From an uncultured Gammaproteobacteria bacterium (GTDB lineage Bacteria; Patescibacteriota; Patescibacteriia; Patescibacteriales; Patescibacteriaceae), in NCBI GenBank assembly GCA_964628045.1, contig CAZVMF010000001.1, forward strand, positions 47,049 through 111,048: a stretch of DNA of 64,000 bases, in the 5' to 3' direction. The translations under genes and the position numbers were made by a program. The notes beneath the pieces were generated by a model, which saw only the letters and a list, made by a program, of their open reading frames with translations, had not been told where the DNA came from and did no database searches. Below, in pieces: positions 35,258-50,205 of the stretch (position 1 is its first letter; each line of letters starts with the position of its first letter).

Positions 35258-35285
35258 TTGACAGCTGTTTTAGTTAGTGTATAAT
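35258..35285 (+). promoter_or_regulatory. Sigma70 promoter of the nicotinamidase-like/vWA/PP2C/kinase operon
   Basis: TTGACA (35258-35263), 16 nt, TATAAT (35280-35285). 31/38 identical to the pnuC promoter at 39743-39780. Confidence 0.65.
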
Positions 35286-35293
35286 ACACACTA
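35275..35293. promoter_or_regulatory. Candidate NrtR operator 1 (TAGTGT-N7-ACACTA)
   Basis: Perfect 6+6 palindrome overlapping the -10 box. The same half-sites occur at 39761-39779. Confidence 0.55.
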
Positions 35294-35295
35294 TA

Positions 35296-35314
35296 AGGTG
35301 TATAAAATACACTA
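35296..35314. promoter_or_regulatory. Candidate NrtR operator 2 (AGGTGT-N7-ACACTA)
   Basis: Second palindrome, 2 nt downstream of operator 1. The inner part is the perfect GTGTAT-AAA-ATACAC. Confidence 0.5.
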
Positions 35315-35356: not shown

Positions 35357-36184
35357 ATGAAAAACTCAGTAAACGTTCATTTGCTGGTCATCGACCCGCA
35401 GAATGATTTTATGGATCTTCCTAATTCCGCATTGCCCGTTACAGGCGCAAATGCAGATATGAAACGTTTGGCCGATTTCATCAATATAAACGGCAAACGC
35501 ATCGAAGATATTCACGTAACGCTTGATTCGCACCAGGTAGTCGATATCGCTCATCCGGCATGGTGGAGGAATTCAAAAGGCGAAATGCCTGCTCCTTACA
35601 CATTGATCTCAGCTGACGATATTGAAGCCGGTGTTTGGACGCCTCGCGATCCAAACCTGCGCATCCGTAGCCTGGAGTATGCTCGTTCGCTTGAAGCCAA
35701 CGGCAAATTCCAGCTCTTTATCTGGCCGCCTCATTGCCTTATTGGGACATGGGGACACGGCGTACAGGATAACCTGATCAAATCATTGCTTGATTGGCAG
35801 GAAAAAGAATACAAAATGGTTGACTTCGTGACCAAAGGTACCAACCCGTTTACAGAACACTACGGCGCCTTGATGGCAGAAGTGCCGGATCCGAAGGATC
35901 CGACAAGCGGTTTGAACACTCAGCTGCTTGAAATGCTGGTTGAAGCCGACGTGATACTCATTGCCGGCGAAGCGCTAAGCCACTGCGTTAAAGAAACACT
36001 CAACCAGATAGCCGATAACATCGGCGAAGAACACGTAAAAAAGATCCAGATTCTCACTGACTGCTGTTCACCGGTAGCCGCGGTTCCTAACGGACCCGAC
36101 TTCCCGGCGATCGCCGCAGCTTGGTTGAAGGACATGGAAAAACGCGGCGTTCAGCTCACAACCACACAAACATTCTTTAACTAA
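35357..36184 (+). CDS. Isochorismatase-family cysteine hydrolase, nicotinamidase-like
   Basis: 275 aa. LLVIDPQNDF (Asp), TKG (Lys), SHCVKET (Cys). DSHQVVDIAH resembles the PncA metal site D-x-H...H. Confidence 0.7.
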   Translation: MKNSVNVHLLVIDPQNDFMDLPNSALPVTGANADMKRLADFININGKRIEDIHVTLDSHQVVDIAHPAWWRNSKGEMPAPYTLISADDIEAGVWTPRDPNLRIRSLEYARSLEANGKFQLFIWPPHCLIGTWGHGVQDNLIKSLLDWQEKEYKMVDFVTKGTNPFTEHYGALMAEVPDPKDPTSGLNTQLLEMLVEADVILIAGEALSHCVKETLNQIADNIGEEHVKKIQILTDCCSPVAAVPNGPDFPAIAAAWLKDMEKRGVQLTTTQTFFN

Positions 36185-36202
36185 CGGAAAGGACTAAGAA
36201 CA

Positions 36203-36961
36203 ATGCCACGCGTAGCAAACAATCAGGACACAATGGAGCAGGGACGTATCGGAGCCAGTAATTTCAAATTCTCCGGCATCCGCACCGAGCATCTCGGCGC
36301 TTCCGAATACACGTTATTTACCATCGGTGTAGATTCTACAGGTTCAGTACACAGTTTTAAAACAGAACTGCGCAAATGCCTTATAACCTCCATAGAATCA
36401 TGCAAAAAATCTCCCCGGGCGGACAATATCTTAGTGAGAGTATTTCTCTTTTCAGAAGAATTTCCTTCCGGTATACAGGAGATACACGGTTTCAAGCCAT
36501 TGGCTGAGATCGATCCTAATGATTATCCGGACTTCGAACCCGGCGGCGGAACACCATTGTTCGACGCCGTATATTCAGCCGTAGGCGCCACCAACGCTTA
36601 TGCGCAGAAGCTTCATGACGATGATTTTATGACGAATGCGATCACCACCATTATAACTGATGGAGAAGATAATGCTTCAACCATGAAACCGAGCGCCATC
36701 AAGCGCGAAATTGAAAGAGCCATCAAGGGTGAATTCATCGAATCATCATTGACAATATTGGTAGGTGTGAACGTTGCCACGTACTTGCCGGAATTACAGG
36801 CATTCCAAAAGGATGCCGCTCTCGACAAATTTATTGACGCGGGCGACGTTACTCCGGGCAAGCTGGCAAAGCTCGCCGAATTCGTGAGCAAATCCGTAAG
36901 TTCCCAGTCACAAGCATTGGGTTCGGGCGGACCGTCACAAAATATCGATGCAACAATATAA
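36203..36961 (+). CDS. von Willebrand factor A (vWA) domain protein, TerY-like
   Basis: 252 aa. MIDAS-type motifs GVDSTGS, GGGTPL, ITDGEDN. Confidence 0.7.
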   Translation: MPRVANNQDTMEQGRIGASNFKFSGIRTEHLGASEYTLFTIGVDSTGSVHSFKTELRKCLITSIESCKKSPRADNILVRVFLFSEEFPSGIQEIHGFKPLAEIDPNDYPDFEPGGGTPLFDAVYSAVGATNAYAQKLHDDDFMTNAITTIITDGEDNASTMKPSAIKREIERAIKGEFIESSLTILVGVNVATYLPELQAFQKDAALDKFIDAGDVTPGKLAKLAEFVSKSVSSQSQALGSGGPSQNIDATI

Positions 36962-37021
36962 GCACATTCATTAACCATACAGGGCATCGGAAACGGTGCC
37001 CTGATTCATAGAAAGAACATA

Positions 37022-37915
37022 ATGGAACCGATAGTAAGCTTTGATTCATATTTTGTCATAGGCGGCCTGCACCTTCGTCAGAATAAGCCTTGTCAGGATC
37101 ATGCTCTCGGCGGATCGGACGAAGCGAGTGCATACATCGCCGTTTCGGACGGCTGCTCAAGCGGACGTCATACTGACATCGGCGCTCGAATCATGACGAC
37201 GACGGCGTTGATTACACTCAAACGTCATCTTGATATTGGTGGTGATACCATCAATCCTTCTGCCATTGCGCAACTGAACGAACGGATTAGGATAGCGGCT
37301 GAAGCCAATAAGCACATGCTCGGTCTCACTACTCAGGACATGCAGGCAACCTGTCTCTATGCTCTCGTTACCGCGCAGGGCGGTTTCATTCAAGTTGTCG
37401 GTGACGGCGTTGTCATTCTCAAATATCTAGATTCAAGCATGGATTCGTATGAATTTAAATGGCAGGAAAATCGCCCGTACTATCTGGCCTATCAAGGTCA
37501 AAACCTCAGACAATTCATTACGGATCATGAACAGGTTGAGAACGCAGAGAAAGCTCTTTGCGTGACAATCAGGCATTTTGATCCTGAGGGAAATGTCACG
37601 ATCGAACAGTCGAATCTGTCTGTCAGACAAGCAATAGAAGGCTATAGCATCGTGATCAACCAATCAACTCAAGAACGCCTCGAAGATGTTATCATCTGTT
37701 CGGATGGCTTAGAAAGCTTCCACACAGAGGAAAACGAGGTTGATCTTGAATCAGTTATACGAAATATTAGCGCCTTCAAGACTTCGAAAGGCGAATTCAT
37801 AAAACGACGCGTTAGCCGCATGCTTGCCGATTTTTCCAAAGAGGGGATCGAGGCAAGCGATGATCTGGCCTGCGCCGCAATTCACATTAATCATTCAGAA
37901 AGGAAAGCAGAGTGA
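37022..37915 (+). CDS. PP2C-family (PP2C_2-like) protein phosphatase
   Basis: 297 aa. GGLHLRQNKPCQDHA...YIAVSDGCSSGRHTDIGA... and the C-terminal ...SDDLACAAI pattern of bacterial PP2C_2 proteins. Confidence 0.65.
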   Translation: MEPIVSFDSYFVIGGLHLRQNKPCQDHALGGSDEASAYIAVSDGCSSGRHTDIGARIMTTTALITLKRHLDIGGDTINPSAIAQLNERIRIAAEANKHMLGLTTQDMQATCLYALVTAQGGFIQVVGDGVVILKYLDSSMDSYEFKWQENRPYYLAYQGQNLRQFITDHEQVENAEKALCVTIRHFDPEGNVTIEQSNLSVRQAIEGYSIVINQSTQERLEDVIICSDGLESFHTEENEVDLESVIRNISAFKTSKGEFIKRRVSRMLADFSKEGIEASDDLACAAIHINHSERKAE

Positions 37916-37916
37916 C

Positions 37917-39662
37917 ATGACACAAACGGGAGCAGTTAAAAAAACGCAGCAATTCGAGCTGGAGGGACGCGGCGTTATAACTCTGCGACCCTCTGATCAT
38001 GTTGCGACAGGCGGAGAAGGATCGGTATACAAAGCCTCTTCGAAAACGCTTATAAAGCTATATTCAGATCCTCTAAAAATGCAACGAGACAGGATGGAAG
38101 AGAAAATCCGCTTGCTTATGCCGATAAAACATCCTTTCATTGTATCACCAAAGGGTCTCGTGTTTGCCAATGGGAAAGCTGCTGGTTTTTACATGGATTA
38201 CGAAAGGGGAGATCCTTTGGCTCGTGTTTTTACCAGTGCATATTGGCAGCGGGAACAATTCGATCTTGACAGCGCTATTAAGCTGGTCGAGGGAATGCGC
38301 GAAGTGATTTGCGAAGCGCATGCGCACAAGGCCATATTGGTTGATGCCAATGAATTTAATTGGCTTGTTAATCGGATAAAGAAAGATCCCGAACCTCGAG
38401 TAATCGATGTTGATTCTTGGGCGATAGGAAAGTTCAAGGCCTCTGTCATTATGCCGTCGATTAGAGATTGGCATACGACGGGTTTTAATGAAGATTCGGA
38501 TTGGTTCTCTTTCGGTGTTGTTTCCTTTCAGGTCTTTAGTGGGGTTCATCCCTACAAGGGCATGCTCGACGGTTATGCGCCGAACGATATTGAAAAAAGA
38601 ATGAAAGCGAATCTTTCAGTCTTTTCAAAAGGAGTGCGCCTAAACAGCGCGGTCCGTGACTTTAAACAAATTCCCAAACCTTTGCTTGATTGGTATCACG
38701 ATCTTTTTCAGAACGGCCGGCGTAGTCAAGCGCCATCGTTACATTCAGGAGCTCAGCCGATACCTAAAGCCGCTTTGGTCCGTCGGACCATTGTAGTTGG
38801 TCCTTCTGATCTGCTTAGCTTCGAACTTTTGTTTGACGGCTTCTCAGATCCGGTTGTTGAGCTGTTTCCTGCCGGTGTGCTCAGATTGAAATCAGGTAAG
38901 CTGATTCATCTCGTAACCAAACGAGTTATCGGGCAGTGTAAGCACAACGAATGCGAAGTGGTGGACACTGAAGGCGGATTACTTCTGGCCGAACTCGACT
39001 CCGCGGGAAAATTAGAATGCAATGTTTTAAAGCAAAATGGACAGATGCAAGCGGTCCCTTCTCAGCTCACCGCAGAAAAGTTATTGCGTTATGAGAACAG
39101 ACTGTTCCTGGTCGGGGACAGGGGATTGACCGAACTCAAGCTCAAACAGATCGGCAAGCCTTTTCTGGTCGCCACTAATACATGGCCGGCGCTCAGCAAT
39201 TCGACTCATTGGTTTAACGGACTGGGCGTGCAGGATTCATTGGGAGCGACGTATCTTGTCCTTCCGTTCGGTGAGGATTCCTGCAGCTTTGTCAGGACGC
39301 CGGAACTTGATGGTAAGAAAATTGCCGATGCGGTTTCCGGATCTCGTTATGCGGCTATCATTGCCCTTGATCCGAAAACCGGAGACTATGAGCAGCATGA
39401 ATTCGTCTTTAACAAAGACTATTCAAACTATGCAGCTTCTCGTGAAACGGCTAACCGTCTCGACCTTAACTTGGCGGTTCTTCCAAAGGGGGTCGCTGTC
39501 AGTGTTCCGGAAGACGGAAAGCTTAAAATCTTTGTTCCGACCAACGGTCAGGAAAAGATCGTTTCCGATTCACATATCCAAAGCTCTTTCAACGTGACCA
39601 ACTGGCTAAATACTGCCGCTGTCATTAGTGGCAGTCAGCTTTGGTCCATAACCATGAAATAA
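37917..39662 (+). CDS. Ser/Thr protein kinase-like protein with ~300-aa beta-rich C-terminal domain
   Basis: ATG 37917 (RBS AGGAAAG, 1 nt after the PP2C stop) is preferred to the overlapping start at 37824. Gly-loop ATGGEGSVYK, IKLY Lys, catalytic ILVDANEFNWLV, VIDVDSW (DFG-equivalent), SDWFSFGVV. Confidence 0.7.
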   Translation: MTQTGAVKKTQQFELEGRGVITLRPSDHVATGGEGSVYKASSKTLIKLYSDPLKMQRDRMEEKIRLLMPIKHPFIVSPKGLVFANGKAAGFYMDYERGDPLARVFTSAYWQREQFDLDSAIKLVEGMREVICEAHAHKAILVDANEFNWLVNRIKKDPEPRVIDVDSWAIGKFKASVIMPSIRDWHTTGFNEDSDWFSFGVVSFQVFSGVHPYKGMLDGYAPNDIEKRMKANLSVFSKGVRLNSAVRDFKQIPKPLLDWYHDLFQNGRRSQAPSLHSGAQPIPKAALVRRTIVVGPSDLLSFELLFDGFSDPVVELFPAGVLRLKSGKLIHLVTKRVIGQCKHNECEVVDTEGGLLLAELDSAGKLECNVLKQNGQMQAVPSQLTAEKLLRYENRLFLVGDRGLTELKLKQIGKPFLVATNTWPALSNSTHWFNGLGVQDSLGATYLVLPFGEDSCSFVRTPELDGKKIADAVSGSRYAAIIALDPKTGDYEQHEFVFNKDYSNYAASRETANRLDLNLAVLPKGVAVSVPEDGKLKIFVPTNGQEKIVSDSHIQSSFNVTNWLNTAAVISGSQLWSITMK

Positions 39663-39678
39663 GCTCTTTATAGCAAAA

Positions 39679-39704
39679 AAGGGGACAGAAATGCCCCCTT
39701 TTAT
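39679..39704 (+). terminator. Rho-independent terminator
   Basis: AAGGGG...CCCCTT hairpin followed by TTAT. Confidence 0.55.
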
Positions 39705-39743
39705 GTTACTCTTAAGAGTGTGGATAAGTAAGCCTTTCAGGAC

Positions 39744-39771
39744 TTGACAAGTAATATAGTTAGTGTATAAT
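39744..39771 (+). promoter_or_regulatory. Sigma70 promoter of pnuC-nadR-nrtR
   Basis: TTGACA (39744-39749), 16 nt, TATAAT (39766-39771). Confidence 0.65.
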
Positions 39772-39779
39772 TAACACTA
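39761..39779. promoter_or_regulatory. Candidate NrtR operator 3 (TAGTGT-N7-ACACTA)
   Basis: Perfect palindrome overlapping the -10 box, directly upstream of the operon that encodes NrtR. Confidence 0.6.
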
Positions 39780-39800: not shown

Positions 39801-40487
39801 ATGGAAACTATTATACATTTTTTCAGCATCAATACAACCTTGTTCACGTTCATGGATTACCAGATGAGCTATATTGAATTTTTCGGAACAGTCTTCAATC
39901 TGCTCTGCGTATGGCTTGCCGTTAAGCGTAATGTTTGGACTTGGCCTGCCGGTTTAGTATCGATTGTATTGTACTTTTTCTTATTCTTTCAGATACAGCT
40001 GTACTCTGATTTATTTGAACAAATGTATTTTTTTATAATGAGCTTTTACGGTTGGTATATCTGGCTTAAAAACGGTTATCAGAAAGACACAGAATTGCAT
40101 GTAGAGAAAAATACAGTAAAGGAGAATATTGTGTATGTCGGTCTCATAATTATTGCAACTATCATATTGGGTTATTTCATGAGAAACATCCATATTTATT
40201 TCCCAAATATTTTTTCAGAACCGGCTTCGTACCCATATTTGGACGCATTCACCACCATACTTAGCTTCGCGGCGACTATTTTGTTAGCTCAGAAGAAATT
40301 TGAAAATTGGCATCTTTGGATAGTGGTGGATATTATCGGTATCTGGCTTTACTATGTGAAAGGCGTTAAGTTCATCGCGTTTGAATATCTTATTTTCTTG
40401 ATTATGGCTAGCCGAGGCTTTTGGGAGTGGCGTACAATTCTTAAAAAAGAGAAATCATTTAAAACTAATCCCTCATATGTTAACTAA
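39801..40487 (+). CDS. pnuC: Nicotinamide riboside transporter PnuC
   Basis: 228 aa with 7-8 TM helices. YIEFFGTVFNLLCVWLAVKRNVWTWPAG...FYGWYIW is the PnuC signature. Confidence 0.85.
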   Translation: METIIHFFSINTTLFTFMDYQMSYIEFFGTVFNLLCVWLAVKRNVWTWPAGLVSIVLYFFLFFQIQLYSDLFEQMYFFIMSFYGWYIWLKNGYQKDTELHVEKNTVKENIVYVGLIIIATIILGYFMRNIHIYFPNIFSEPASYPYLDAFTTILSFAATILLAQKKFENWHLWIVVDIIGIWLYYVKGVKFIAFEYLIFLIMASRGFWEWRTILKKEKSFKTNPSYVN

Positions 40488-41520
40488 TATCATCAACAAT
40501 CCGGCTTTGCCCGGAAAAAAACTCGGCAGCGGTCTTGTTTTCGGCAAATTTATGCCTTTGCATGACGGTCATATTTATCTTTTGAGTTTTGCTCAGCGTT
40601 CTGTCCATCGTTTAACTATCATAGTGTGCAGTCTAAAGAACGAACCGATTCCGGGCGAAATTCGTTATCAATGGGTCAAGCAGATGTTTCCGGAAGCAAA
40701 TGTAATCCATCATTATGATGAGATTCCGCAAGACCCTTCAGAGGATCCTAATTTCTGGCAGATTTGGGAAGACACGATTAAGCGTCACTGTCCGGGCGAA
40801 GAATTCGATTGCTTGTTTGGCTCTGAAGATTATGGCTGGAAGATGGCAGAGAAGATGGGAATTCAATATATTCCCGTGAACAGAGTGCGCAGCCTTGTCC
40901 CGATCTCCGGCACGGAAATGCGAACTCATCCTCTGAAAAACTGGGAATTTTTGCCTCGCGTTGTTCGGCCCTACTTTTTAAAGAAAGTATGTATTGTCGG
41001 ACCTGAATCGGTTGGCAAATCGACGCTTGCCAAGAAGCTTGCTGAACATTACGGTACAGTGCATGTTGAAGAATACGGCTGGACTTTATTGCAGGATTAT
41101 TATGTTAATGCGGTACGCAAACCGGGCGAAGTAATTATTGAAGATTTTCCGACAATCGCCCGTGGACAAATAGCCAGCGAAGATTCTCTTGCTCACCGGG
41201 CTACGAAAGTCATGTTCTGTGATACTGATCTTATCACTACAGTCTATTGGGCAAACCATTATTGTAAACAATGCCCGAAATGGATTGAAGAAGAAGCCGA
41301 AAGGCGCAGTTATGATTTATATATCCTCCTTGATCCTAATGTGCCATTTGTCGATGAGAACTATCGGGTTATGACAAAACAAGAAGATCGTGAGGCATAT
41401 TATAAATGGTGGGAGATGGAGTTGATCCGCCGCGCCCGACCCTTTGTAAAAATTTCCGGCGATTGGGACAAGCGTTTTAAAGATGCTTGCTCAGCCGTTG
41501 ATCAATTAATTAAAGAATAA
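40477..41520 (+). CDS. nadR: Bifunctional NMN adenylyltransferase / ribosylnicotinamide kinase (NadR-type, no HTH)
   Basis: 347 aa. GLVFGKFMPLHDGHIYLL (nucleotidyltransferase HxGH) and a P-loop VCIVGPESVGKSTL (RNK domain). It overlaps pnuC by 11 nt. Confidence 0.85.
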   Translation: MLTNIINNPALPGKKLGSGLVFGKFMPLHDGHIYLLSFAQRSVHRLTIIVCSLKNEPIPGEIRYQWVKQMFPEANVIHHYDEIPQDPSEDPNFWQIWEDTIKRHCPGEEFDCLFGSEDYGWKMAEKMGIQYIPVNRVRSLVPISGTEMRTHPLKNWEFLPRVVRPYFLKKVCIVGPESVGKSTLAKKLAEHYGTVHVEEYGWTLLQDYYVNAVRKPGEVIIEDFPTIARGQIASEDSLAHRATKVMFCDTDLITTVYWANHYCKQCPKWIEEEAERRSYDLYILLDPNVPFVDENYRVMTKQEDREAYYKWWEMELIRRARPFVKISGDWDKRFKDACSAVDQLIKE

Positions 41521-41527
41521 TTATTAT

Positions 41528-42214
41528 ATGAGTTCAAAAAAAACCATCAAAGCTTTGCGTCAATTCCAGCACGCGATCGTCGCCGTCGATACGGTTCTCT
41601 TCGCAATTAATGATGACAAACTTATGACTGTCTTGTTGCAAATCAAGCGCAAGCCCTTAACAGGAACCTGGGCATTGCCCGGTGGATTGATAATGCCGGA
41701 TGAAAACTTCGAGCAAGGAATTGAGCGTCATTTGCGTAGCAAGTTAGGTTTGAAAAAACCGTATGCTGAACAACTATACACTTTCGGAGAAACCGACCGT
41801 GATCCGCGCGGACGCGTTGTTTCCGTTGCATATATCGGTCTCTTGTCTCAAGTCGAGAATAAATTAAGTACGAACGAAGACTATTCATCAATTCAGTGGT
41901 TTGATATCAAGAAACTTCCTGCATTGGCGTATGACCATAAGAAAATCATCTCCGTCGCCTTGGAACGTCTGCGGAGCAAGCTTGCATATACGAACATCGC
42001 TCAGTATTTACTTGAAGAGAAGTTCACGCTCAGCCAGCTACAGAAAGCGTATGAGGTGGTTTTGGGGCACGTTCTTGATAAGCGCAATTTCCGCAAAAAG
42101 CTTCTCTCACTTAATATTTTAAAAGAGGTGAAGGGGACGGCAATCGGCGCCTTTCGGCCAGCTCAACTGTATTCATTTTCCAGTAAACAGAGCAAAATCA
42201 TTGAGATTTTGTAG
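41528..42214 (+). CDS. nrtR: NrtR, Nudix-related transcriptional regulator of NAD metabolism
   Basis: 228 aa. A Nudix-like N-terminal domain with a degenerate box (LPGGLIMPDENFEQGIERHLRSKLGL), then LPALAYDHKKII...LRSKLAYTNIAQYLL...FTLSQLQKAYEVVLGHVLDKRNFRKK (winged helix). Confidence 0.85.
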   Translation: MSSKKTIKALRQFQHAIVAVDTVLFAINDDKLMTVLLQIKRKPLTGTWALPGGLIMPDENFEQGIERHLRSKLGLKKPYAEQLYTFGETDRDPRGRVVSVAYIGLLSQVENKLSTNEDYSSIQWFDIKKLPALAYDHKKIISVALERLRSKLAYTNIAQYLLEEKFTLSQLQKAYEVVLGHVLDKRNFRKKLLSLNILKEVKGTAIGAFRPAQLYSFSSKQSKIIEIL

Positions 42215-42225
42215 TTTTTATACTC

Positions 42226-42254
42226 TTGACAAAATACCTATTTTGTATTAAATT
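42226..42254 (+). promoter_or_regulatory. Candidate promoter of pncA containing the AATAC-N7-GTATT palindrome
   Basis: TTGACA (42226-42231), 17 nt, TAAATT (42249-42254). The spacer contains AATACCTATTTTGTATT. Confidence 0.4.
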
Positions 42255-42305
42255 AATTAATTAAAACAATCAAAAACAAACACATCGCGAGGAAATGAGG
42301 AAAGA

Positions 42306-42965
42306 ATGAATATTAAAAAAAGAAGAAAAAAATATGTCGCAAGTTTGGATGTCGATCCGCAGCGCGGATTTTCATCTCAGACTAAAAGAAAAGAGTTACC
42401 GGTTGAAGGAGCGGCTCAGATCGTAGGCGAGCTTGAGTGCAATAAGCATTTCAGTTTGATCCATACGGCGAGCAAAGAGGCTCATCCGCATAATCCCAAA
42501 TGGAAGGCGACTTTAACCAAGCCCCAGGGGACGGAAATACACAATAAGCCGAATCTTGACCGCAGATGGAATATTCACTGCCAGGTCGGAACTGTCGGAG
42601 CAGAATTTTTGCGCGGCATGCCAAAGGTGACGGACTATGATTACATTGCCTACAAAGGCATGGAACGGGAGATGCATCCGTACGGCGCCTGCTTTCATGA
42701 CTTGGATAAAAAGATTTCAACGGGCTTGATTGAGTTCCTGACAGTTAAAGGAATCAAACTTGTTGTGGTCGGCGGGCTTGCAACGGATTACTGCGTTAAG
42801 AACACGGTGCTTGAGCTCAGGCATGCGGGTTTCGATGTCATTGTTAATTTGGCTTCATGTCGTGGAATCGCAGCGGACACCACCAAGAGCGCCTTGTTTG
42901 AAATGAAAGGCGCGGGTGCGGTTATAGTGAAGAATTCCAAACAACTTAAAAAGTACATATATTAA
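42306..42965 (+). CDS. pncA: Nicotinamidase/pyrazinamidase
   Basis: 219 aa. LDVDPQRGF (Asp), AYKG (Lys), GGLATDYCVKNT (Cys). Context between nrtR and pncB. Confidence 0.75.
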   Translation: MNIKKRRKKYVASLDVDPQRGFSSQTKRKELPVEGAAQIVGELECNKHFSLIHTASKEAHPHNPKWKATLTKPQGTEIHNKPNLDRRWNIHCQVGTVGAEFLRGMPKVTDYDYIAYKGMEREMHPYGACFHDLDKKISTGLIEFLTVKGIKLVVVGGLATDYCVKNTVLELRHAGFDVIVNLASCRGIAADTTKSALFEMKGAGAVIVKNSKQLKKYIY

Positions 42966-43102
42966 ATCTTCGGGAACCGTAATGAAACGGTTCCCAGGAA
43001 AAGCGCAACTGACGTCAGTCGGTTCTGGTTTTCCGGTTTTAATCATTTTGATTGAAACCAAAAAGTACATTACATAAAATCATAAAGGAGAACAAAAAAC
43101 TA

Positions 43103-44371
43103 ATGGGACTCATAACAAGCTTTGATTGGAAAATCAAGGATGAGCCGATTATGCAATCATCCATGGATTTAGATACCTATAAAATCACCATGGGGCAATT
43201 AATTTTCGCTCATCACCCGAATGTTCCAATACTTTCAGGTTTACTGAATCGGACCAAGTCGGTTAACTTGGTTGATCATATCAGCAAAGAAGAGCTTAAA
43301 GAGCAATTGGATCATGCGCGCACTTTGCGGTTCACAAACAGTGAGTTGCATTACCTGCGCGGCATGAATGAATACAAAGATAGGATGTTTTCCGAAGACT
43401 ATCTTCAGTATTTAAAAAGTTACCAATTGCCTAGTTACGAGCTTAGCTACAAGAAGCGTAATCTATCGCTCGGATTTCCGGGTAAATGGACAAAGAGCAC
43501 TTATTGGGAAACAGTTGGCTTATCGATAATTGCAGAACTATTTACACGCTCGCAGGTTAGGAAACTTAGTCAAAAAGAACGTAATGCCATTATTAGCAAA
43601 GGCTTAAGAAAATTATACCGGAAAATTAAGTTGCTTAAGCAATATCCAGGCATAACAATTTCTGACTTTACTACAAGGCGCCGTGCTTTTAGAGAATGGC
43701 ATGAATTAGTAGTTTCAATTTTAAAAGCTGAGTTGCCGGGACAATTTCTTGGTACTTCAAACCTTAAAATTGCGATGGATCAGGATCTTCTCGCAATGGG
43801 AACAAATGCGCATGAATTACAGATGGTTTATTCGCGTTTATTCGGAACTTCTGATGAAGCAATCCGTTATTCGCCGCAAAGGCTTAATATGGATTGGTGG
43901 AATATGTATGGTGAAGCGTTAGCACTTCATTTACCCGACACTTTCGGAACCGATGCATATTTAAGAGATATGAGCTTTGAAGCAGCGTTGCGCAGCAAAG
44001 GTTTCAGACAGGATTCAGGTGACCCGATTGCTTTTGGAGAAAAGGTAATTTCCTTTTACAAAAGATATGGAATTGACCCAAGAGAAAAGATGATTGTCTT
44101 TAGTGATGGACTTGATGTGGAAACGATTATTAAAATCTACCTTCACTTTGAAGGAAGAATCAAGACTACCTACGGCTGGGGAACTAACCTTGGGAACGAT
44201 CTTGGTTTACAGGTTCTATCAATCGTTATAAAGATACTTATGGCCAATGGTTTACCGACAGTAAAGTTGCCGGATAACTTAAGCAAAGCCATGGGTCCAA
44301 TAGAAACCCAGGAAGAGTACAAGCGTATCTTTGATTATCACACAACCTTTATGCAGGAATGTAAATATTAA
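43103..44371 (+). CDS. pncB: Nicotinate phosphoribosyltransferase
   Basis: The ORF is open from TTG 43052; ATG 43103 (AAGGAG upstream) is preferred. DLDTYKITMGQ, FTNSELHYLRG, DFTTRRR, GTSN, GTNAHE, RQDSGDP and FSDGLD align with E. coli PncB motifs. Confidence 0.85.
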   Translation: MGLITSFDWKIKDEPIMQSSMDLDTYKITMGQLIFAHHPNVPILSGLLNRTKSVNLVDHISKEELKEQLDHARTLRFTNSELHYLRGMNEYKDRMFSEDYLQYLKSYQLPSYELSYKKRNLSLGFPGKWTKSTYWETVGLSIIAELFTRSQVRKLSQKERNAIISKGLRKLYRKIKLLKQYPGITISDFTTRRRAFREWHELVVSILKAELPGQFLGTSNLKIAMDQDLLAMGTNAHELQMVYSRLFGTSDEAIRYSPQRLNMDWWNMYGEALALHLPDTFGTDAYLRDMSFEAALRSKGFRQDSGDPIAFGEKVISFYKRYGIDPREKMIVFSDGLDVETIIKIYLHFEGRIKTTYGWGTNLGNDLGLQVLSIVIKILMANGLPTVKLPDNLSKAMGPIETQEEYKRIFDYHTTFMQECKY

Positions 44372-44386
44372 GAATGATAGTTTTAC

Positions 44387-44411
44387 GGCGGAGAGAAAAA
44401 AACTCTCCGCC
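44387..44411 (+). terminator. Rho-independent terminator
   Basis: GGCGGAGAG-aaaaaaa-CTCTCCGCC followed by AATCATTTTATTTTT. Confidence 0.65.
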
Positions 44412-44491
44412 AATCATTTTATTTTTATATGAGTTACGGATTAATCGGTAATTGATATAAAAATAAAAAATAAAATTGGAGAATATAGTAC

Positions 44492-45379
44492 ATGCAAAAT
44501 AATATAGAGAAGTATATACTGCTTGGAAAAAATGGATCTGAATTGATTCATTATCGTCCGGAATATGACAAGGCGTTAATAGAGCCGTTAATAGAAGTCA
44601 ATACCAGCGATATCACAACGGATTCATTTCCGCTTTTTGTCGGAAGGTCTCAGGGACGAAGCGGTGTTGATTTAAACGCCTGTCAAAGAGCGTATAAGAA
44701 GTGGGGAAGTTTTGGTCCTGAAGGTGACATGATACAAGTAGTTGGTTTTCCGGTTAGAGAAATGACTTATTACTATATTACATCAATTGGTAATTTAGCA
44801 TTTCATAAACCGGCGCTAACTGTCGATCTGGCTTTATTTCTTATCGATGGTAAGGGGAAACGATTCTTAACTATTATTATCAGGAAGTATCCTCCATGCG
44901 AAGGGCAACAGGCTTTACCCGGCGGCTTCAGGGAAGTTAAAGGGTTTCATTTTGAAACGGCCATAGAAACCATAATTCACGAAACAAAAAGTGAAATTGG
45001 ATTAACCCTTATCCCTCAGTATGAAGATCCTTCTTTGCTGCCGAATGCTCAGCGCTTTGATATGATAGTTAAATTTCCGGATGATGTACTTGATCCTGCT
45101 TCCGTTAAATTTCTTCATTTGGGAAATTTTCAAACTTCCACTGAAGAAAAACTAAGGAGAGGCAGACAAGCAAAGCGGGTGCACGAAACCAGTGCATACG
45201 CAGCGATATTAGAAGTTCCTTTAATCGGAAAAAGAAAATTGCAAAAGCTATTTAAAGCCGGTGATGATGCACATAGAGTCTCGTTAGTTGAAGTTGATTC
45301 TAATGATTCAGTTACTCTTGCATTTGGTCACCATAATAAAATTTTGCAGCAGGCTTTTTTAAAGCTTAAAAATTTATGA
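44492..45379 (+). CDS. Nudix-fold protein with degenerate Nudix box and ~100-aa N-terminal extension (NrtR-like Nudix domain without DNA-binding domain)
   Basis: 295 aa. The box reads GGFREVKGFHFETAIETIIHETKSEIGL, with REUxEE replaced by HETKSE. The C-terminal LAFGHHNKILQQAFLKL parallels NrtR LAYDHKKIISVALERL. Confidence 0.6.
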   Translation: MQNNIEKYILLGKNGSELIHYRPEYDKALIEPLIEVNTSDITTDSFPLFVGRSQGRSGVDLNACQRAYKKWGSFGPEGDMIQVVGFPVREMTYYYITSIGNLAFHKPALTVDLALFLIDGKGKRFLTIIIRKYPPCEGQQALPGGFREVKGFHFETAIETIIHETKSEIGLTLIPQYEDPSLLPNAQRFDMIVKFPDDVLDPASVKFLHLGNFQTSTEEKLRRGRQAKRVHETSAYAAILEVPLIGKRKLQKLFKAGDDAHRVSLVEVDSNDSVTLAFGHHNKILQQAFLKLKNL

Positions 45380-45383
45380 ATTC

Positions 45384-45403
45384 GGGCGAGAATTATCTCG
45401 CCC
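45384..45403 (+). terminator. Hairpin terminator
   Basis: GGGCGAG-aattat-CTCGCCC followed by CCTTTAT (weak T-tail). Confidence 0.45.
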
Positions 45404-45487
45404 CCTTTATAGAGTTACTTAAGACTTAGGTGACTCTTCAAGGAATGAACATTGAAAATAAAATTATAAAGTGGAGAATAAATAATA

Positions 45488-47932
45488 ATGAAAAATACAT
45501 TAGAAGGTTTGGCTTTGGCATTGTGTCAGATGTTGGTTGTCCCCGGACAACCTCGCCGCAATGCCGATTACATCATTAATGAAATCCTTGAAGCGGAACG
45601 TCGCCGAATCGATATCATTATCTTTCCGGAAATGTGCGTGAGCGGATATCTGATCGGTGATCTGTATGAAGATGAGGACTTCTGCAATGATGTTCTACAT
45701 CAGAATCAAAGGATTGTTGAAGCTACAAAGATGCTGGATATCACGGTGATTTTCGGCAGCTTGTCGACCGACGCCGTATTAGGTGAAGACGGCAGGATGA
45801 TATTGTTCAATACGGCTTTCACCGTTCACAACGGAGAGGTGATTGCCCGTCGCATTAAATTTCTTCAACCTAATTATCGGATATTCGATGATGACCGTCA
45901 TCTCTATTCCGGACGTAAATTGGCACAGACAAAGCAGAAATCGATCACCGAACATAATGGAAATGGTTTTGCTCACAGTTTCGAACCAGTTCTGGTGCAT
46001 ACGAGAGTAGGAGGATTGCGCATCGGCACTATGATCTGTGAAGACATGTGGCATGAAGATTATCCTTTTAATCCGGCCCAGGAACTGGTTAATAACGGCG
46101 CTGAACTCCTTGTTAATATCTCGGCATCGCCGTGGACTTGGCAAAAAAATGCCAAGCGTCACCGTGTTGTTAAAGATATCATCAAGGTCAGCAAGGTTCC
46201 CCTTATCTATGTGAATCACACAGGCATTCAGAACAACGGCAAGAATATTATTATTTTTGACGGAAGTTCGACGGCCTATAACAGGCAGGGTCAGATTGCT
46301 CAGTCGATTGCGCCCTATTTCGAAGGAACAAAAGATATTATATGGAATGAAGCGTATACGCAGATAGGTTTTGAACAACGTAATGATACAAAGGAACTGT
46401 ACAATGCCCTGATTTATGCGATCCGGAAATTCTGGTCCTTTCTGCCGAAAGACAAGAAAAATGTTTTTATCGGTTTGAGCGGGGGAATTGATTCTGCGTT
46501 AAGCATTGCTTTATTCTCTCAAGCAATCGGGGCTGAATATATCACCGCAATCAACATGCCTTCACGATATAATTCAGATGAGACAAAATCTCTCGCTGAA
46601 GAAATTTCGCGAAACCTTGGCGTGGCTTATGAAGTTATATCTATTGAAGATATAGTCAGCGCGATCGCTAAGACTTGCGCTGTCAGCGAAGAAAGCTTTG
46701 CGTATCAGAACATTCAAGCTCGTGCTCGCATGGAAATATTAGCGGCTCGAGCTCAGGAAAAAGGCGGCGTTTTCGTTGCTAACGGCAACAAGGTTGAAAT
46801 GGCCTTCGGCTATGCGACCCTGTACGGAGACATGGCCGGATTCTTTGCTCCTTTGGGTGATCTGGTTAAAAGGGAGATATATCAGCTAGCTGTATATATC
46901 AACGAAGAGGTGTATCACTACAAGGTCATCCCGAATGCATGTCTCATGCTCAAGCCGACGGCTGAACTTAAATATGATCAAACTGATCCATTTGATTATG
47001 GTGATTACAAAGGCAACAAAGGATATCATGATGAAATGGTCAGGGCCTTTACTGAGTTCCGAAAGAATCCTGAATGGTTTCTCAGGAATATGCTGCATGG
47101 GACGCTTGAACAGTCTTTGCACATTGATGAGAATCGTCTGGTCAACTTGTTCGGAACCGCGGAAGCTATGATTGAAGACTTGGAAGCAAAGTGGAATATG
47201 TTTTATGCCTCATATGTAAAGCGGATTCAGGCTGTGCCCATTCCGATTGTCAGTAAGCGCAGTTTTGGTTTTGACTTGCGGGAATCAATGCTTGAAGCTT
47301 ATTTCAGTGATGAATACCTCAAGCTCAAAGAACGGCTATTGGGGAAAGCGTCGCGACATCAACACGGAAAAATAGCCGTCTTCGGAGGAAGTTTTAATCC
47401 GCCGACAGCTGATCACAGGGCAATTGCCGAGAAACTCCTTTCTCGCTTTGACCGGGTGTTGATAGTTCCGTGCGGTTCTCGTAATGACAAGGATACCCTG
47501 GTGATTGATGCGGCACATCGTAAAGCCATGATACAAGCTTGTTTTTCAGAACTTGATAAAGTCGAAATAGACTTTTTCGATCTTGAAAACACTGCGTATA
47601 TGGCAACCCATATTCTTGATAAACGTTATTCGTTGCAATACCCTAATGATGAAATATGGCATGTCTTCGGTACTGATATTGTTTCGGATATCAAGAAACA
47701 TTGGCAGAAAGGACCGCAAACATGGAACAGTCTCAACTTCATTTTTGTTCCGCGTACCGGTTTCTCTCTCGATATGTTTGATATGCCGCCGCATTATAAG
47801 TTGCTGGAGATATCCGGATTGATGCACTCAAGCACCATGGTCCGTGAAAATCTTCGCAAGTATAAAAAAAGCAGTGGCTTGACCGATGAAGTCAGAGCCT
47901 ACATTGAATCGTATCAGATATATTTTGGATAG
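45488..47932 (+). CDS. nadE: Fusion protein: glutamine-dependent NAD+ synthetase (CN-hydrolase + NAD synthetase domains) + NadD-type nicotinate/nicotinamide mononucleotide adenylyltransferase
   Basis: 814 aa. N-terminal nitrilase-like glutaminase (IIFPEMCVSGY...MICEDMWH), PP-loop GLSGGIDSA, then C-terminal KIAVFGGSFNPPTADH...HSSTMVRENL (NadD GxFxPxHxxH and SxTxxR motifs). Confidence 0.8.
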   Translation: MKNTLEGLALALCQMLVVPGQPRRNADYIINEILEAERRRIDIIIFPEMCVSGYLIGDLYEDEDFCNDVLHQNQRIVEATKMLDITVIFGSLSTDAVLGEDGRMILFNTAFTVHNGEVIARRIKFLQPNYRIFDDDRHLYSGRKLAQTKQKSITEHNGNGFAHSFEPVLVHTRVGGLRIGTMICEDMWHEDYPFNPAQELVNNGAELLVNISASPWTWQKNAKRHRVVKDIIKVSKVPLIYVNHTGIQNNGKNIIIFDGSSTAYNRQGQIAQSIAPYFEGTKDIIWNEAYTQIGFEQRNDTKELYNALIYAIRKFWSFLPKDKKNVFIGLSGGIDSALSIALFSQAIGAEYITAINMPSRYNSDETKSLAEEISRNLGVAYEVISIEDIVSAIAKTCAVSEESFAYQNIQARARMEILAARAQEKGGVFVANGNKVEMAFGYATLYGDMAGFFAPLGDLVKREIYQLAVYINEEVYHYKVIPNACLMLKPTAELKYDQTDPFDYGDYKGNKGYHDEMVRAFTEFRKNPEWFLRNMLHGTLEQSLHIDENRLVNLFGTAEAMIEDLEAKWNMFYASYVKRIQAVPIPIVSKRSFGFDLRESMLEAYFSDEYLKLKERLLGKASRHQHGKIAVFGGSFNPPTADHRAIAEKLLSRFDRVLIVPCGSRNDKDTLVIDAAHRKAMIQACFSELDKVEIDFFDLENTAYMATHILDKRYSLQYPNDEIWHVFGTDIVSDIKKHWQKGPQTWNSLNFIFVPRTGFSLDMFDMPPHYKLLEISGLMHSSTMVRENLRKYKKSSGLTDEVRAYIESYQIYFG

Positions 47933-47942
47933 CTCTTTAGAC

Positions 47943-47975
47943 AGCCTTTATGCTCCTTAGCGTAAAGGCTTTTTT
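47943..47975 (+). terminator. Rho-independent terminator
   Basis: AGCCTTTA-12 nt-TAAAGGCT followed by TTTTT. Confidence 0.65.
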
Positions 47976-48048
47976 ATTAATTGACAGCTAATAATATTAA
48001 TGGTTAAATCAGATAAAGAACTTTTATAAATTAATACGTGAGGGGACA

Positions 48049-48918
48049 ATGAATCATCCAATATCACTACATCCGTTAACTCAAACAACGCTTTTAGGCG
48101 CCGTGATTGGCGATATGGCAGGTTCGTTTTATGAACATCCGCCATCAAACAGAGTCACAAAAACTGATTTTAAAATTTATGCTCCCGGATCAACATTTAC
48201 CGATGACACAGTAATGACCATGGCAATTGCTCAATATTTAATTGATGTAAAACTTGGACAGAATAAACCGGTTGAATTTTATTTAAAGAATTTTTTTGCA
48301 AAGTATCCGAGCCGTAATTACGGAAAAGGTTTTGTTGCCTGGTGTAAAGGCAGTGAAGACAACCAAAGCTATGGTAATGGCGCAGCGATGAGAATCAGTG
48401 CAGTTGCATATTGTGCCAGTGACGAAAGATCTCTTTTGGATTTGGCGAGGAAGGTTACTATACCGAGTCACGCTCATCCGCTTGCAATTGTCTGTGCACA
48501 AGCAGTTGCTTTGGCAATTTTTATGAGCTTAAGGCAAGACAGTAAAGCGGAAATTGCCATTGCAGTGAGTCAGCTCTTGGCCGGTACAGGTATTTTTCCG
48601 GCGACAATTAAGGCTCCTGAAGCATATGATCAGTATTATAAAAACGAAGAACCAATATCAAAATCATTTCCAAGCGTCCTGCAAGCGATCGGCTGTTTTA
48701 TATTTACCGATTCGGCCGAAGCCGCAATTCGTAAAGCAGTTGCATGCGGTAAGGATGCCGATACCCAGGCTGCGATTGTAGGTTCAATAGCGTTTGCGTT
48801 TTATAAACAAATTCCTCGGTATATGTTTTCGTATGCACCGGGCTTGCCTGAAGAGTTTATCGATATAATTGAAACATTTTCAGAGCTATATGAAGTTCCA
48901 AAAATCGAACTTCTTTAA
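48049..48918 (+). CDS. ADP-ribosylglycohydrolase (ARH/DraG family)
   Basis: 289 aa. LLGAVIGDMAGSFYE, FTDDTVMT, GNGAAMRISAVA, GKDADTQAAIVGSIAFAFY. Confidence 0.85.
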   Translation: MNHPISLHPLTQTTLLGAVIGDMAGSFYEHPPSNRVTKTDFKIYAPGSTFTDDTVMTMAIAQYLIDVKLGQNKPVEFYLKNFFAKYPSRNYGKGFVAWCKGSEDNQSYGNGAAMRISAVAYCASDERSLLDLARKVTIPSHAHPLAIVCAQAVALAIFMSLRQDSKAEIAIAVSQLLAGTGIFPATIKAPEAYDQYYKNEEPISKSFPSVLQAIGCFIFTDSAEAAIRKAVACGKDADTQAAIVGSIAFAFYKQIPRYMFSYAPGLPEEFIDIIETFSELYEVPKIELL

Positions 48919-49422: not shown

Positions 49423-50205
49423 ATGAAATGGCCATTGTCATTAATGCTTATCCGTCACGCTGAATCAGCTTACAATATTTTGAGAAAGAAGAAATCCGAA
49501 AATAAAATCTTTAAAAGATTTTTAATGGAGTATGAATTGAATCCTTGTTCTGATGCTACGGTAGAATTAGCTAAGTTGGTAAGGGAAGAATTTATAGAAG
49601 AACCGGCAATGAATGTTGGTGATGCAAATACGCCATTGATTCATGTAGAATGTGAAAAAACTAGAGCTGTCGGGGCAGCATTGCGCAAGGAGTATCCGTT
49701 ACCCGATGTAATTTTTGTTTCGCCATACAAACGTACCTGGGATACGTTAAAGAATCTAATAGTTGCTTGGCCTGAATTAAAAAAAGTTAAAATTGTTGAA
49801 GAAGATTTAATTCGTGAACAGGAACATGGTGAAGTAATTATGTACCCGGATTGGAAAGTATATTTATCTTTGCATCCTGAGCAGAAAAAGCTCTATGATC
49901 GTGAAGGTCAATATTATTATCGTTACCCACAGGGTGAAAGCGTTCCTGATGTTCGTTTACGAAACAGAATGTTTATTTCAACTTTGACTCGTGATTATGC
50001 TGGAAAAAAAGTTATGGTAGTAACGCACCATTTAACTATTCTGGCAATGCGAGCGAATCTTGAACGTTTAAGTGCAAAACAGTTTTTGGAACTTGATGAA
50101 AAACAGAAGCCGATTAATGGGGGAGTTACTCTATATGAGGGCAACCCAAATCAGGGGAGCGATGGAAGGTTAAAGTTAACTTTCTATAACAAGAAGTATT
50201 ATTAA
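49423..50205 (+). CDS. Histidine phosphatase family protein
   Basis: 260 aa. LIRHAESAYN (RHxxS), FVSPYKRTWDT, VVTHHLTI. Confidence 0.75.
   Translation: MKWPLSLMLIRHAESAYNILRKKKSENKIFKRFLMEYELNPCSDATVELAKLVREEFIEEPAMNVGDANTPLIHVECEKTRAVGAALRKEYPLPDVIFVSPYKRTWDTLKNLIVAWPELKKVKIVEEDLIREQEHGEVIMYPDWKVYLSLHPEQKKLYDREGQYYYRYPQGESVPDVRLRNRMFISTLTRDYAGKKVMVVTHHLTILAMRANLERLSAKQFLELDEKQKPINGGVTLYEGNPNQGSDGRLKLTFYNKKYY

Follow-up and report, generated by a model that had tools for sequence, protein, structure and literature searches.

The TerY-P triad (Anantharaman et al. 2012) comprises a vWA protein, a PP2C phosphatase and a Ser/Thr kinase encoded side by side; PMC11090510 presents it both as a stand-alone defence system of Gao 2020 and as an accessory of CoCoNuT type II/III-A systems. 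TerY-P-like modules are cited there and in PMC7699616 as validated anti-phage systems (Gao 2020), and the Escherichia coli kinase YegI and phosphatase PphC are both active, with unknown substrates (10.1101/819920). The published NrtR operator is a 21-bp palindrome with a GT-N7-AC core which overlaps the promoter and from which ADP-ribose frees the repressor (PMC2330246), and large phages carry genes for the synthesis, salvage and reconstitution of nicotinamide adenine dinucleotide (NAD; PMC11662467; PMC9503650). We analysed a 64,000-nucleotide stretch of contig CAZVMF010000001.1 (assembly GCA_964628045.1; hereafter the window), in which a predicted divergent nicotinamidase gene (g1) is followed in one operon by genes for a vWA protein (g2), a PP2C_2-type phosphatase (g3) and a Hanks-type Ser/Thr kinase (g4), behind putative NrtR-type operators. 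With slightly better than even confidence, we read g1-g4 as a nicotinamide-recycling module induced through ADP-ribose and NrtR, whose enzyme would be gated by a TerY-P-like phospho-switch. The initial annotation of this DNA had regarded the TerY-P triad as lacking an established role, a view which the anti-phage modules and the characterised YegI/PphC pair correct.

The products of g2-g4 share with the TerY-P triad the adjacency of a vWA protein with a metal-ion-dependent adhesion site (MIDAS), a PP2C phosphatase and a Ser/Thr kinase bearing an extra C-terminal domain, in an order that is kept in 69/69 related loci. Unlike the TerY-P triad, they are always preceded by a nicotinamidase gene, have NAD salvage genes as neighbours and an NrtR-type operator, and give no TerY-P match in PADLOC. 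The C-terminus of g4 also differs: our model and sequence searches suggest that its ~290 residues are all-beta, whereas PMC11090510 describes an oligonucleotide/oligosaccharide-binding (OB) fold for the defence form or a zinc ribbon for the CoCoNuT form. In comparison with E. coli YegL/PphC (YegK)/YegI, the kinase domain is homologous, the PP2C is related and the Ser-rich C-terminal segments of the vWA proteins are alike; YegI, however, spans the membrane twice, whereas g4 lacks membrane segments and has a soluble beta domain in their place, and the E. coli locus has neither a nicotinamidase nor an NAD context. On the regulatory side the likeness is to the NrtR regulon (Rodionov et al. 2008, PMC2330246), with its Nudix plus winged-helix regulator and a GT-N7-AC palindrome over the promoter; pnuC-nadR, pncB, nadE and nrtR itself are targets common to the published regulon and the genomes that carry the g1 cassette. 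The published regulons include no kinase, PP2C or vWA gene, and their unknown members are just nrtX-nrtY (PMC2330246). As with the NAD genes of jumbo phages, viral copies of the cassette lie beside genes for nicotinate phosphoribosyltransferase, nadE or NAD-dependent ligase. We did not find a vWA/PP2C/kinase set with a nicotinamidase described in PMC11662467 or PMC9503650, nor the combination in the NrtR regulon paper, the YegI/PphC work or a comparative overview of jumbo phages, and full-text literature searches that paired NrtR or nicotinamidase with vWA, kinase or TerY returned no prior description, in agreement with the initial annotation, which was aware of no described system of this architecture. 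The parts are known in kind (NrtR operator, PncA-like enzyme, TerY-P-like triad); what is new is that they occur in a fixed combination, that this combination belongs to the NAD regulon and is found in huge phages as well, and that its kinase has a private domain.

The four genes occupy 35357-36184 (g1, 275 aa), 36203-36961 (g2, 252 aa), 37022-37915 (g3, 297 aa) and 37917-39662 (g4), all on the + strand, with intergenic gaps of 18, 60 and 1 nt. The start of g4 is an ATG internal to a longer open reading frame (ORF) beginning at 37824. Upstream of g1 lies a sigma-70 promoter that matches the consensus at 12/12 positions (TTGACA-16-TATAAT, 35258-35285, + strand), and downstream of g4 an intrinsic terminator (39671-39708, + strand) in which a hairpin (dG -16.6 kcal/mol, z -3.3) is followed by UUUUAU.

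When searched alone, g1 falls short of the curated cut-offs for both Pfam Isochorismatase (21.4 bits against 27) and NCBIfam PncA (29.6 bits against 174). A profile built from 18 family members found five matches in the PDB, every one of them a nicotinamidase, including 29iv (1e-10), yeast Pnc1 (2h0r, 2.7e-9) and Mycobacterium tuberculosis PncA (3pl1, 5e-7), and the alignment to Pnc1 and 29iv spans the metal-site motifs. The catalytic triad D13/K160/C210 and the metal ligands D57, H59 and H126, which belong to a D-x-H motif and, for H126, to WPxHC, are invariant in cellular and viral homologues alike, and the motifs DPQNDF, TKG, SHCV and DSHQVVDIAH all fall on family-invariant columns. g1 thus shares with the PncA enzymes (PncA of E. 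coli and M. tuberculosis, Pnc1 of yeast) the Asp/Lys/Cys triad, the Asp-His-His metal site and WPxHC; it differs from them in being ~60 residues longer, with extra insertions relative to the solved nicotinamidases, in scoring under the curated thresholds and in being always encoded with the triad of g2-g4. It is a distant paralogue of the canonical pncA product encoded at 42306-42965 (27% identity over 95 aa). From its sequence we predict g1 to be a divergent PncA-type nicotinamidase with its triad and metal ligands intact.

For g2, Pfam gave no match with the single sequence, each vWA model being weakly matched by just 1-2/18 family members, and a profile search of PDB sequences returned nothing meaningful; its identity was settled by fold. 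The AlphaFold2 (AF2) model (pLDDT 84, pTM 0.84) has as its top Foldseek matches integrin I domains, ITIH1 and the vWA domains of TRAP and ANTXR. The MIDAS residues D44-x-T-x-S48, T117 and D153 are invariant in the family, and so is a Ser-rich C-terminal tail, FVSxSVSSQSQALGTGGPSQ. JGI labels homologues of g2 "YegL", to which the alignment is weak (hhalign E 1.4e-3 at 18% probability), with the MIDAS site and the Ser-rich C-terminal segment common to both proteins. The phosphatase assignment of g3 is direct (Pfam PF13672, PP2C_2, 3e-22, 79.5 bits against a cut-off of 24); its metal-binding positions D26, D43-G44, D128, D228 and D280-D281 are at least 90% conserved, and BLASTP aligns it with E. 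coli PphC (2e-6). The kinase domain of g4 (residues 1-275) scores 21 bits with Pfam Pkinase, under the cut-off, and its AF2 model (pLDDT 87) has the bilobal kinase fold, with Foldseek matches to ULK1, PKA, PknS and PknA. Residues K47 (ATP-binding), D143 and N148 (catalytic Asp..Asn), D164 (Mg-binding) and D195-W196 (subdomain IX) are invariant, and hhalign aligns residues 31-219 with the kinase domain of E. coli YegI (97%, E 4e-11). Since the kinase is homologous to YegI, the PP2C is related to PphC and g2 shows a weak likeness to YegL with a shared Ser-rich segment, we regard the triad as TerY-P-like.

Residues 289-581 of g4 form a family-specific domain that is all-beta in the model, with ~28 strands. 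It has no Pfam match and no PDB match in a profile search, and Foldseek with the whole model is dominated by matches to the kinase domain. Among 1.8 billion representatives scanned it was found in 599 clusters, either as the C-terminal half of ~550-600-aa proteins or as pieces of up to ~460 aa that presumably come from cut contigs, and never in any other architecture. Together these results agree with what had been read from the window alone, namely four co-directional genes with one promoter, short gaps and a terminator, encoding a nicotinamidase-like protein with the catalytic Asp/Lys/Cys and a metal motif, a vWA protein with MIDAS residues, a PP2C_2-type phosphatase and a kinase-like protein with a beta-rich C-terminal domain.

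A scan of one genome per species gave 165 relatives, from which we kept 80 loci; completeness was counted over the 69 loci that extend 2.8 kb or more upstream of the kinase, and the NAD-gene neighbourhood over the 40 with at least 5 kb on both sides. Homologues are numerous, with more than 660 full-length for the g4 kinase and more than 3100 for the g2 vWA protein; a search for the exact g4 sequence matched no contig. The 80 loci are mostly from Patescibacteria, with a few from Micavibrio, Bdellovibrionales, Rickettsiales, Methylococcaceae and Rhodoferax metagenome-assembled genomes (MAGs). All four genes are adjacent, colinear and on the same strand in 69/69 loci (median span 4.3 kb), with a median overlap of 4 nt between g3 and g4, and in locus L053 the cassette is kept on a 995-kb chromosome. 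The pairwise distances of the four proteins correlate (r = 0.71-0.88, 129 loci), indicating that the genes travel and evolve together. At least one of nrtR, pncB and nadE lies within 10 kb of the cassette in 37 of the 40 loci (pncB in 31, nadE in 28, nrtR in 27), while canonical pncA does so in 2; the linkage to NAD genes on which the initial annotation had relied is therefore conserved in related genomes, as is the complete cassette. In the nearest relative the order is cassette, nrtR, pncB, a 306-aa ORF and nadE. Beyond pncB, nrtR, nadE and an occasional ADP-ribosylglycohydrolase gene, which flanks the cassette in ~10 related loci, we found no further conserved gene around it. A second and more divergent g1-like gene lies outside the cassette in two loci (L005 12748-13782 and L037 6337-7179; 28% and 43% identity), the one in L005 behind an NrtR-type box of its own.

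Two putative NrtR-type operators were located at the g1 promoter. The first (TAGTGTATAATACACACTA, 35275-35293) matches TAGTGT-N7-ACACTA without mismatch and overlaps the -10 box; the second (AGGTGTATAAAATACACTA, 35296-35314) has 2 mismatches in an imperfect left arm (AGGTGT-N7-ACACTA), with the core GTGT-N7-ACAC intact. Two full palindromes had been annotated here, so the claim stands for the first and fails for the second, whereas the further copy annotated at the pnuC-nadR-nrtR promoter is indeed perfect (39761-39779, 0 mismatches, on a promoter likewise of full consensus, TTGACA-16-TATAAT; together 39744-39779, + strand). The two promoters align along CTTGACA...TAGTTAGTGTATAAT..ACACTAT. In the 64 kb there are exactly 3 copies of the core GTGT-N7-ACAC, all on these promoters, and 0/100 shuffled windows reached 3 copies. 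No NrtR-type box at 2 or fewer mismatches was found in the rest of the NAD island (42306-48918). Within the window the operator is confined to the g1 operon and pnuC-nadR-nrtR; the promoter region of canonical pncA-pncB (42215-42305, TTGACA-17-TAAATT) is likewise without one. The pnuC-nadR-nrtR operon itself (39801-42214, + strand) was assigned with Pfam and NCBIfam, its products matching NMN_transporter (4e-55; pnuC), nadR_NMN_Atrans (2e-79; nadR) and NrtR_WHD plus NUDIX (8e-23 and 3.5e-12; nrtR, 41528-42214). The NadR homologue (40477-41520) consists of enzyme domains only, a nicotinamide mononucleotide (NMN) adenylyltransferase and a kinase, without the N-terminal helix-turn-helix, and NrtR rather than NadR is therefore the likely regulator here.

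The operator recurs in the related genomes. In 39/69 loci the 300 nt upstream of g1 contain a site that agrees with TAGTGT-N7-ACACTA at 10/12 positions or more, and frequently two such boxes stand in tandem. At a threshold of 11/12 we counted 138 sites over 1.31 Mb of loci, where shuffled sequence gave 1-4, and the gene downstream is g1 for 60 of them, nrtR for 16, pncB for 13, nadE for 8 and pnuC for 6; further sites precede NAD kinase and pncA genes. The window motif agrees with the published definition of an NrtR operator, which is a palindrome built on a GT-N7-AC core and located at the promoter or overlapping it. Because the motif fits that operator and precedes both g1 and NAD genes in relatives, we infer that the g1 operon is a conserved member of the NrtR regulon, which NrtR would bind. 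An NAD kinase gene recognised by its GGDGT motif stands directly behind an NrtR-type box in L044 (5829-6680) and in three other loci, by which NADP synthesis would come under the predicted regulon of these bacteria. In six proteobacterial loci from Rhodoferax and Agitococcus MAGs (L073, L075, L076 and L078-L080) nrtR lies directly upstream of g1 and is transcribed divergently; these six have no TAGTGT-N7-ACACTA box and likely use a different operator sequence.

With the kinase and vWA profiles we scanned IMG/VR, a collection that is not free of misclassified or proviral cellular DNA, and obtained 87 loci on contigs of 26-66% GC, many of them 100-618 kb in length. Of these 87 loci, 86 have g1, 87 g2, 80 g3 and 78 g4; all four genes occur together in 76 loci, 73 of them colinear. 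The viral copies keep the catalytic residues of all four proteins as well as the serine tail of g2. Copies of g2 (44% and 41% identity) and g4 (29%) are also present in two GenBank genomes of "uncultured phage", 485 and 595 kb in size, and the best BFVD match of the g4 kinase model is a full-length Myoviridae protein (9e-28). The viral genes have a median span of 4.9 kb, with g1-g2 the pair that stays adjacent in phages. In L110 (8786-10564; GenBank LR745208.1, a 485-kb uncultured phage) an HNH/endonuclease VII-type gene lies between g2 and g3, and an insertion of this kind probably explains the spread-out phage cassette. Several viral loci have a gene for a nicotinate-type phosphoribosyltransferase, nadE or an NAD-dependent ligase beside g1. 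The NrtR box was found at 2 sites in the viral loci, which is chance level, indicating that the operator is a cellular feature only. The high-GC contigs from IMG/VR, with identifiers in a format that to our understanding marks isolate or single-cell genomes, have Dam, HerA-like and exonuclease genes; these contigs may be islands or prophages.

The reading we favour builds on what is established, that is the identities of the genes, their intact catalytic residues, the co-inheritance of the four genes in cells and phages, and the conservation of the operator with NAD genes. Consumption of NAD would cause ADP-ribose to build up, upon which NrtR would leave the two operators overlapping the -10 box and g1-g4 would be transcribed along with pnuC-nadR-nrtR. 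g1 would then deamidate nicotinamide to nicotinate for the neighbouring PncB and subsequently NadD and NadE (the Preiss-Handler route). The g4 kinase and the g3 phosphatase might set the phosphorylation state of g2, with the invariant Ser-rich tail as the most likely target, and g2 could use its MIDAS site to bind and gate the nicotinamidase or to control the metal loading of g1, such that nicotinamide recycling would be switched post-translationally; the private beta domain of g4 is the likely input sensor. For the metal-loading idea, the reported dependence of PncA activity on metallochaperone-like proteins (PMC6941528) is a lead rather than a test. The tightest pairs, g1-g2 and g3-g4, fit a layout of "enzyme plus adaptor" and "writer plus eraser". 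We offer this specific scheme, in which kinase and phosphatase act on g2 and g2 on g1, tentatively and consider it rather unlikely to be right in each of its steps. Bolder, and in our view a doubtful if attractive extension, is a phosphorylation-gated, deamidating NAD-rebuilding device common to host-dependent ultra-small bacteria (with scattered MAGs labelled Micavibrio, Bdellovibrionales or Rickettsiales) and huge phages, in which the beta domain would sense NAD collapse or infection and the phosphorylated g2 tail would release or activate g1 to feed PncB/NadD/NadE.

Several points weigh against a gated recycling module. The roles of g1-g4 are predicted from sequence and modelled structure, and both g2 as phospho-target and its contact with g1 are what we infer. 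The box lies within 300 nt of g1 in just 39/69 loci and is absent from the viral copies, and the window already encodes a canonical pncA, which makes the need for a gated second enzyme puzzling. The related TerY-P modules are known for defence rather than for metabolic regulation. Finally, the scores of g1 below the curated Pfam and NCBIfam cut-offs could mean that it acts on a different substrate. In that case g1 would be a cysteine amidohydrolase of another amide (NMN, nicotinamide riboside or a modified protein side chain) and the four proteins a new enzymatic or maturation complex of NAD or ADP-ribose metabolism. The short stretch of 27% identity to canonical PncA, the insertions relative to the solved enzymes and the canonical pncA gene nearby all fit such a divergence, yet the g1 profile matches nothing but nicotinamidases in the PDB, the nicotinamidase-specific WPxHC and D-x-H metal motifs are invariant, and relatives have pncB near the cassette far more often than canonical pncA (31/40 versus 2/40); we consider a change of substrate quite improbable. 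Equally, g1 might be an ordinary salvage enzyme with which an unrelated signalling module happens to share a promoter. The functional or physical coupling of g1 to the triad is putative, but colinearity in 69/69 genomic loci, the retention of all four genes in 76 viral loci despite inserted homing endonucleases, the correlated evolutionary distances of the proteins and the confinement of the g4 beta domain to this architecture make a purely positional association very hard to credit.

The most probable of the alternatives is a conflict system, in which a TerY-P-type phospho-switch would have a nicotinamidase as its effector and form an ADP-ribose-induced anti-phage or stress device in cells. 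Removal of nicotinamide might starve the NAD-reconstitution enzymes of a phage or lift product inhibition of an NADase effector, and in huge phages the same genes could act in counter-defence or exclude superinfecting phages. Triads of the TerY-P-like kind have been validated as defence systems (Gao 2020, cited in PMC11090510 and PMC7699616), and the module is mobile, occurring in several phyla and in phages at 26-66% GC. PMC9503650 predicts that ADP-ribose-sensing Nudix-HTH regulators control immune systems with vWA partners and ADP-ribosylglycohydrolases, and systems of an ADP-ribosylglycohydrolase and a phosphatase that would process ADP-ribose; the NAD island of the window holds an ADP-ribosylglycohydrolase gene (48049-48918) and then, closing the island, a histidine-phosphatase-family gene (49423-50205), a pair which resembles those predicted systems. 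Hidden Markov models from PADLOC gave weak matches to g4 alone (mad6, PD-T4-6 and MkoA), and it is to defence kinases (mad6, PD-T4-6) that the only PADLOC matches of this kinase point. The same models matched none of g1, g2 and g3, however, whether at E 0.01 or even at E 10. Moreover, the neighbours of the cassette are NAD biosynthesis genes rather than defence islands, its operator is common to pncB, nadE, pnuC and NAD kinase, the module is kept in genomes of roughly 1 Mb (L053), and phage copies lie beside a nicotinate phosphoribosyltransferase gene, as would suit the rebuilding of NAD. The metabolic neighbourhood, the shared operator and the missing PADLOC matches weigh against a pure defence role, and we regard the conflict reading as unlikely.

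NAD is at the centre of the contest between bacteria and phages, and the ultra-small Patescibacteria, a very large group of bacteria, depend on it much as on a vitamin. A relative of TerY-P tied to one defined enzyme (a predicted nicotinamidase) and one regulator (NrtR, with ADP-ribose as its signal) gives an experimental handle on an otherwise opaque triad and adds a conserved non-metabolic member to the predicted NrtR regulon. The huge-phage cassettes beside nicotinate phosphoribosyltransferase suggest an unrecognised deamidating route of phage NAD maintenance. If the gated, NAD-rebuilding device that we sketch above were real, it would be the first concrete biochemical partner of a TerY-P-type switch and, in phages, a third kind of counter-measure to NAD-depleting abortive infection.

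The rest of the NAD island (42306-48918, + strand) encodes, in order, canonical pncA, pncB, a 295-aa Nudix-like ORF, a nadE-nadD fusion and the ADP-ribosylglycohydrolase. The 295-aa ORF (44492-45379), between pncB and nadE, belongs to no Pfam family and weakly resembles NrtR in its Nudix part (residues 95-150); ORFs of 295-306 aa are conserved in this position in L169 (14221-15141) and also in L008, L017 and L036. The fusion (45488-47932) is an 814-aa protein with CN-hydrolase and NAD synthase domains and a C-terminal cytidylyltransferase-like (NadD-type) domain, which would therefore unite the last two steps of NAD synthesis in one polypeptide.

The 34-40 kb stretch around the operon has 44-48% GC, against ~34-45% in the rest of the window, in line with the earlier impression of a GC-richer block; the stretch extends over glmS as well. 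A Legionella-like host with a recent horizontal acquisition of the cassette, as GC might suggest, was considered and dropped: glmS lies inside the GC-rich stretch, and glmS, the type IV pilin gene and the NAD genes are all Patescibacteria-like. The closest relatives of glmS (72-74% identity) are all from Patescibacteria, and the best of them shares one 302-kb contig with the best kinase and vWA matches. The window thus probably derives from a Patescibacterium. In addition to the type IV pilin-like protein, the window encodes a 1970-aa protein with SpvB, FG-GAP and RHS repeats (21909-27821; toxin-complex-like), which is unexpected on a Patescibacteria-like contig, and, on the - strand, a fusion of a PIN domain with a PhoH-like ATPase (4118-5719).

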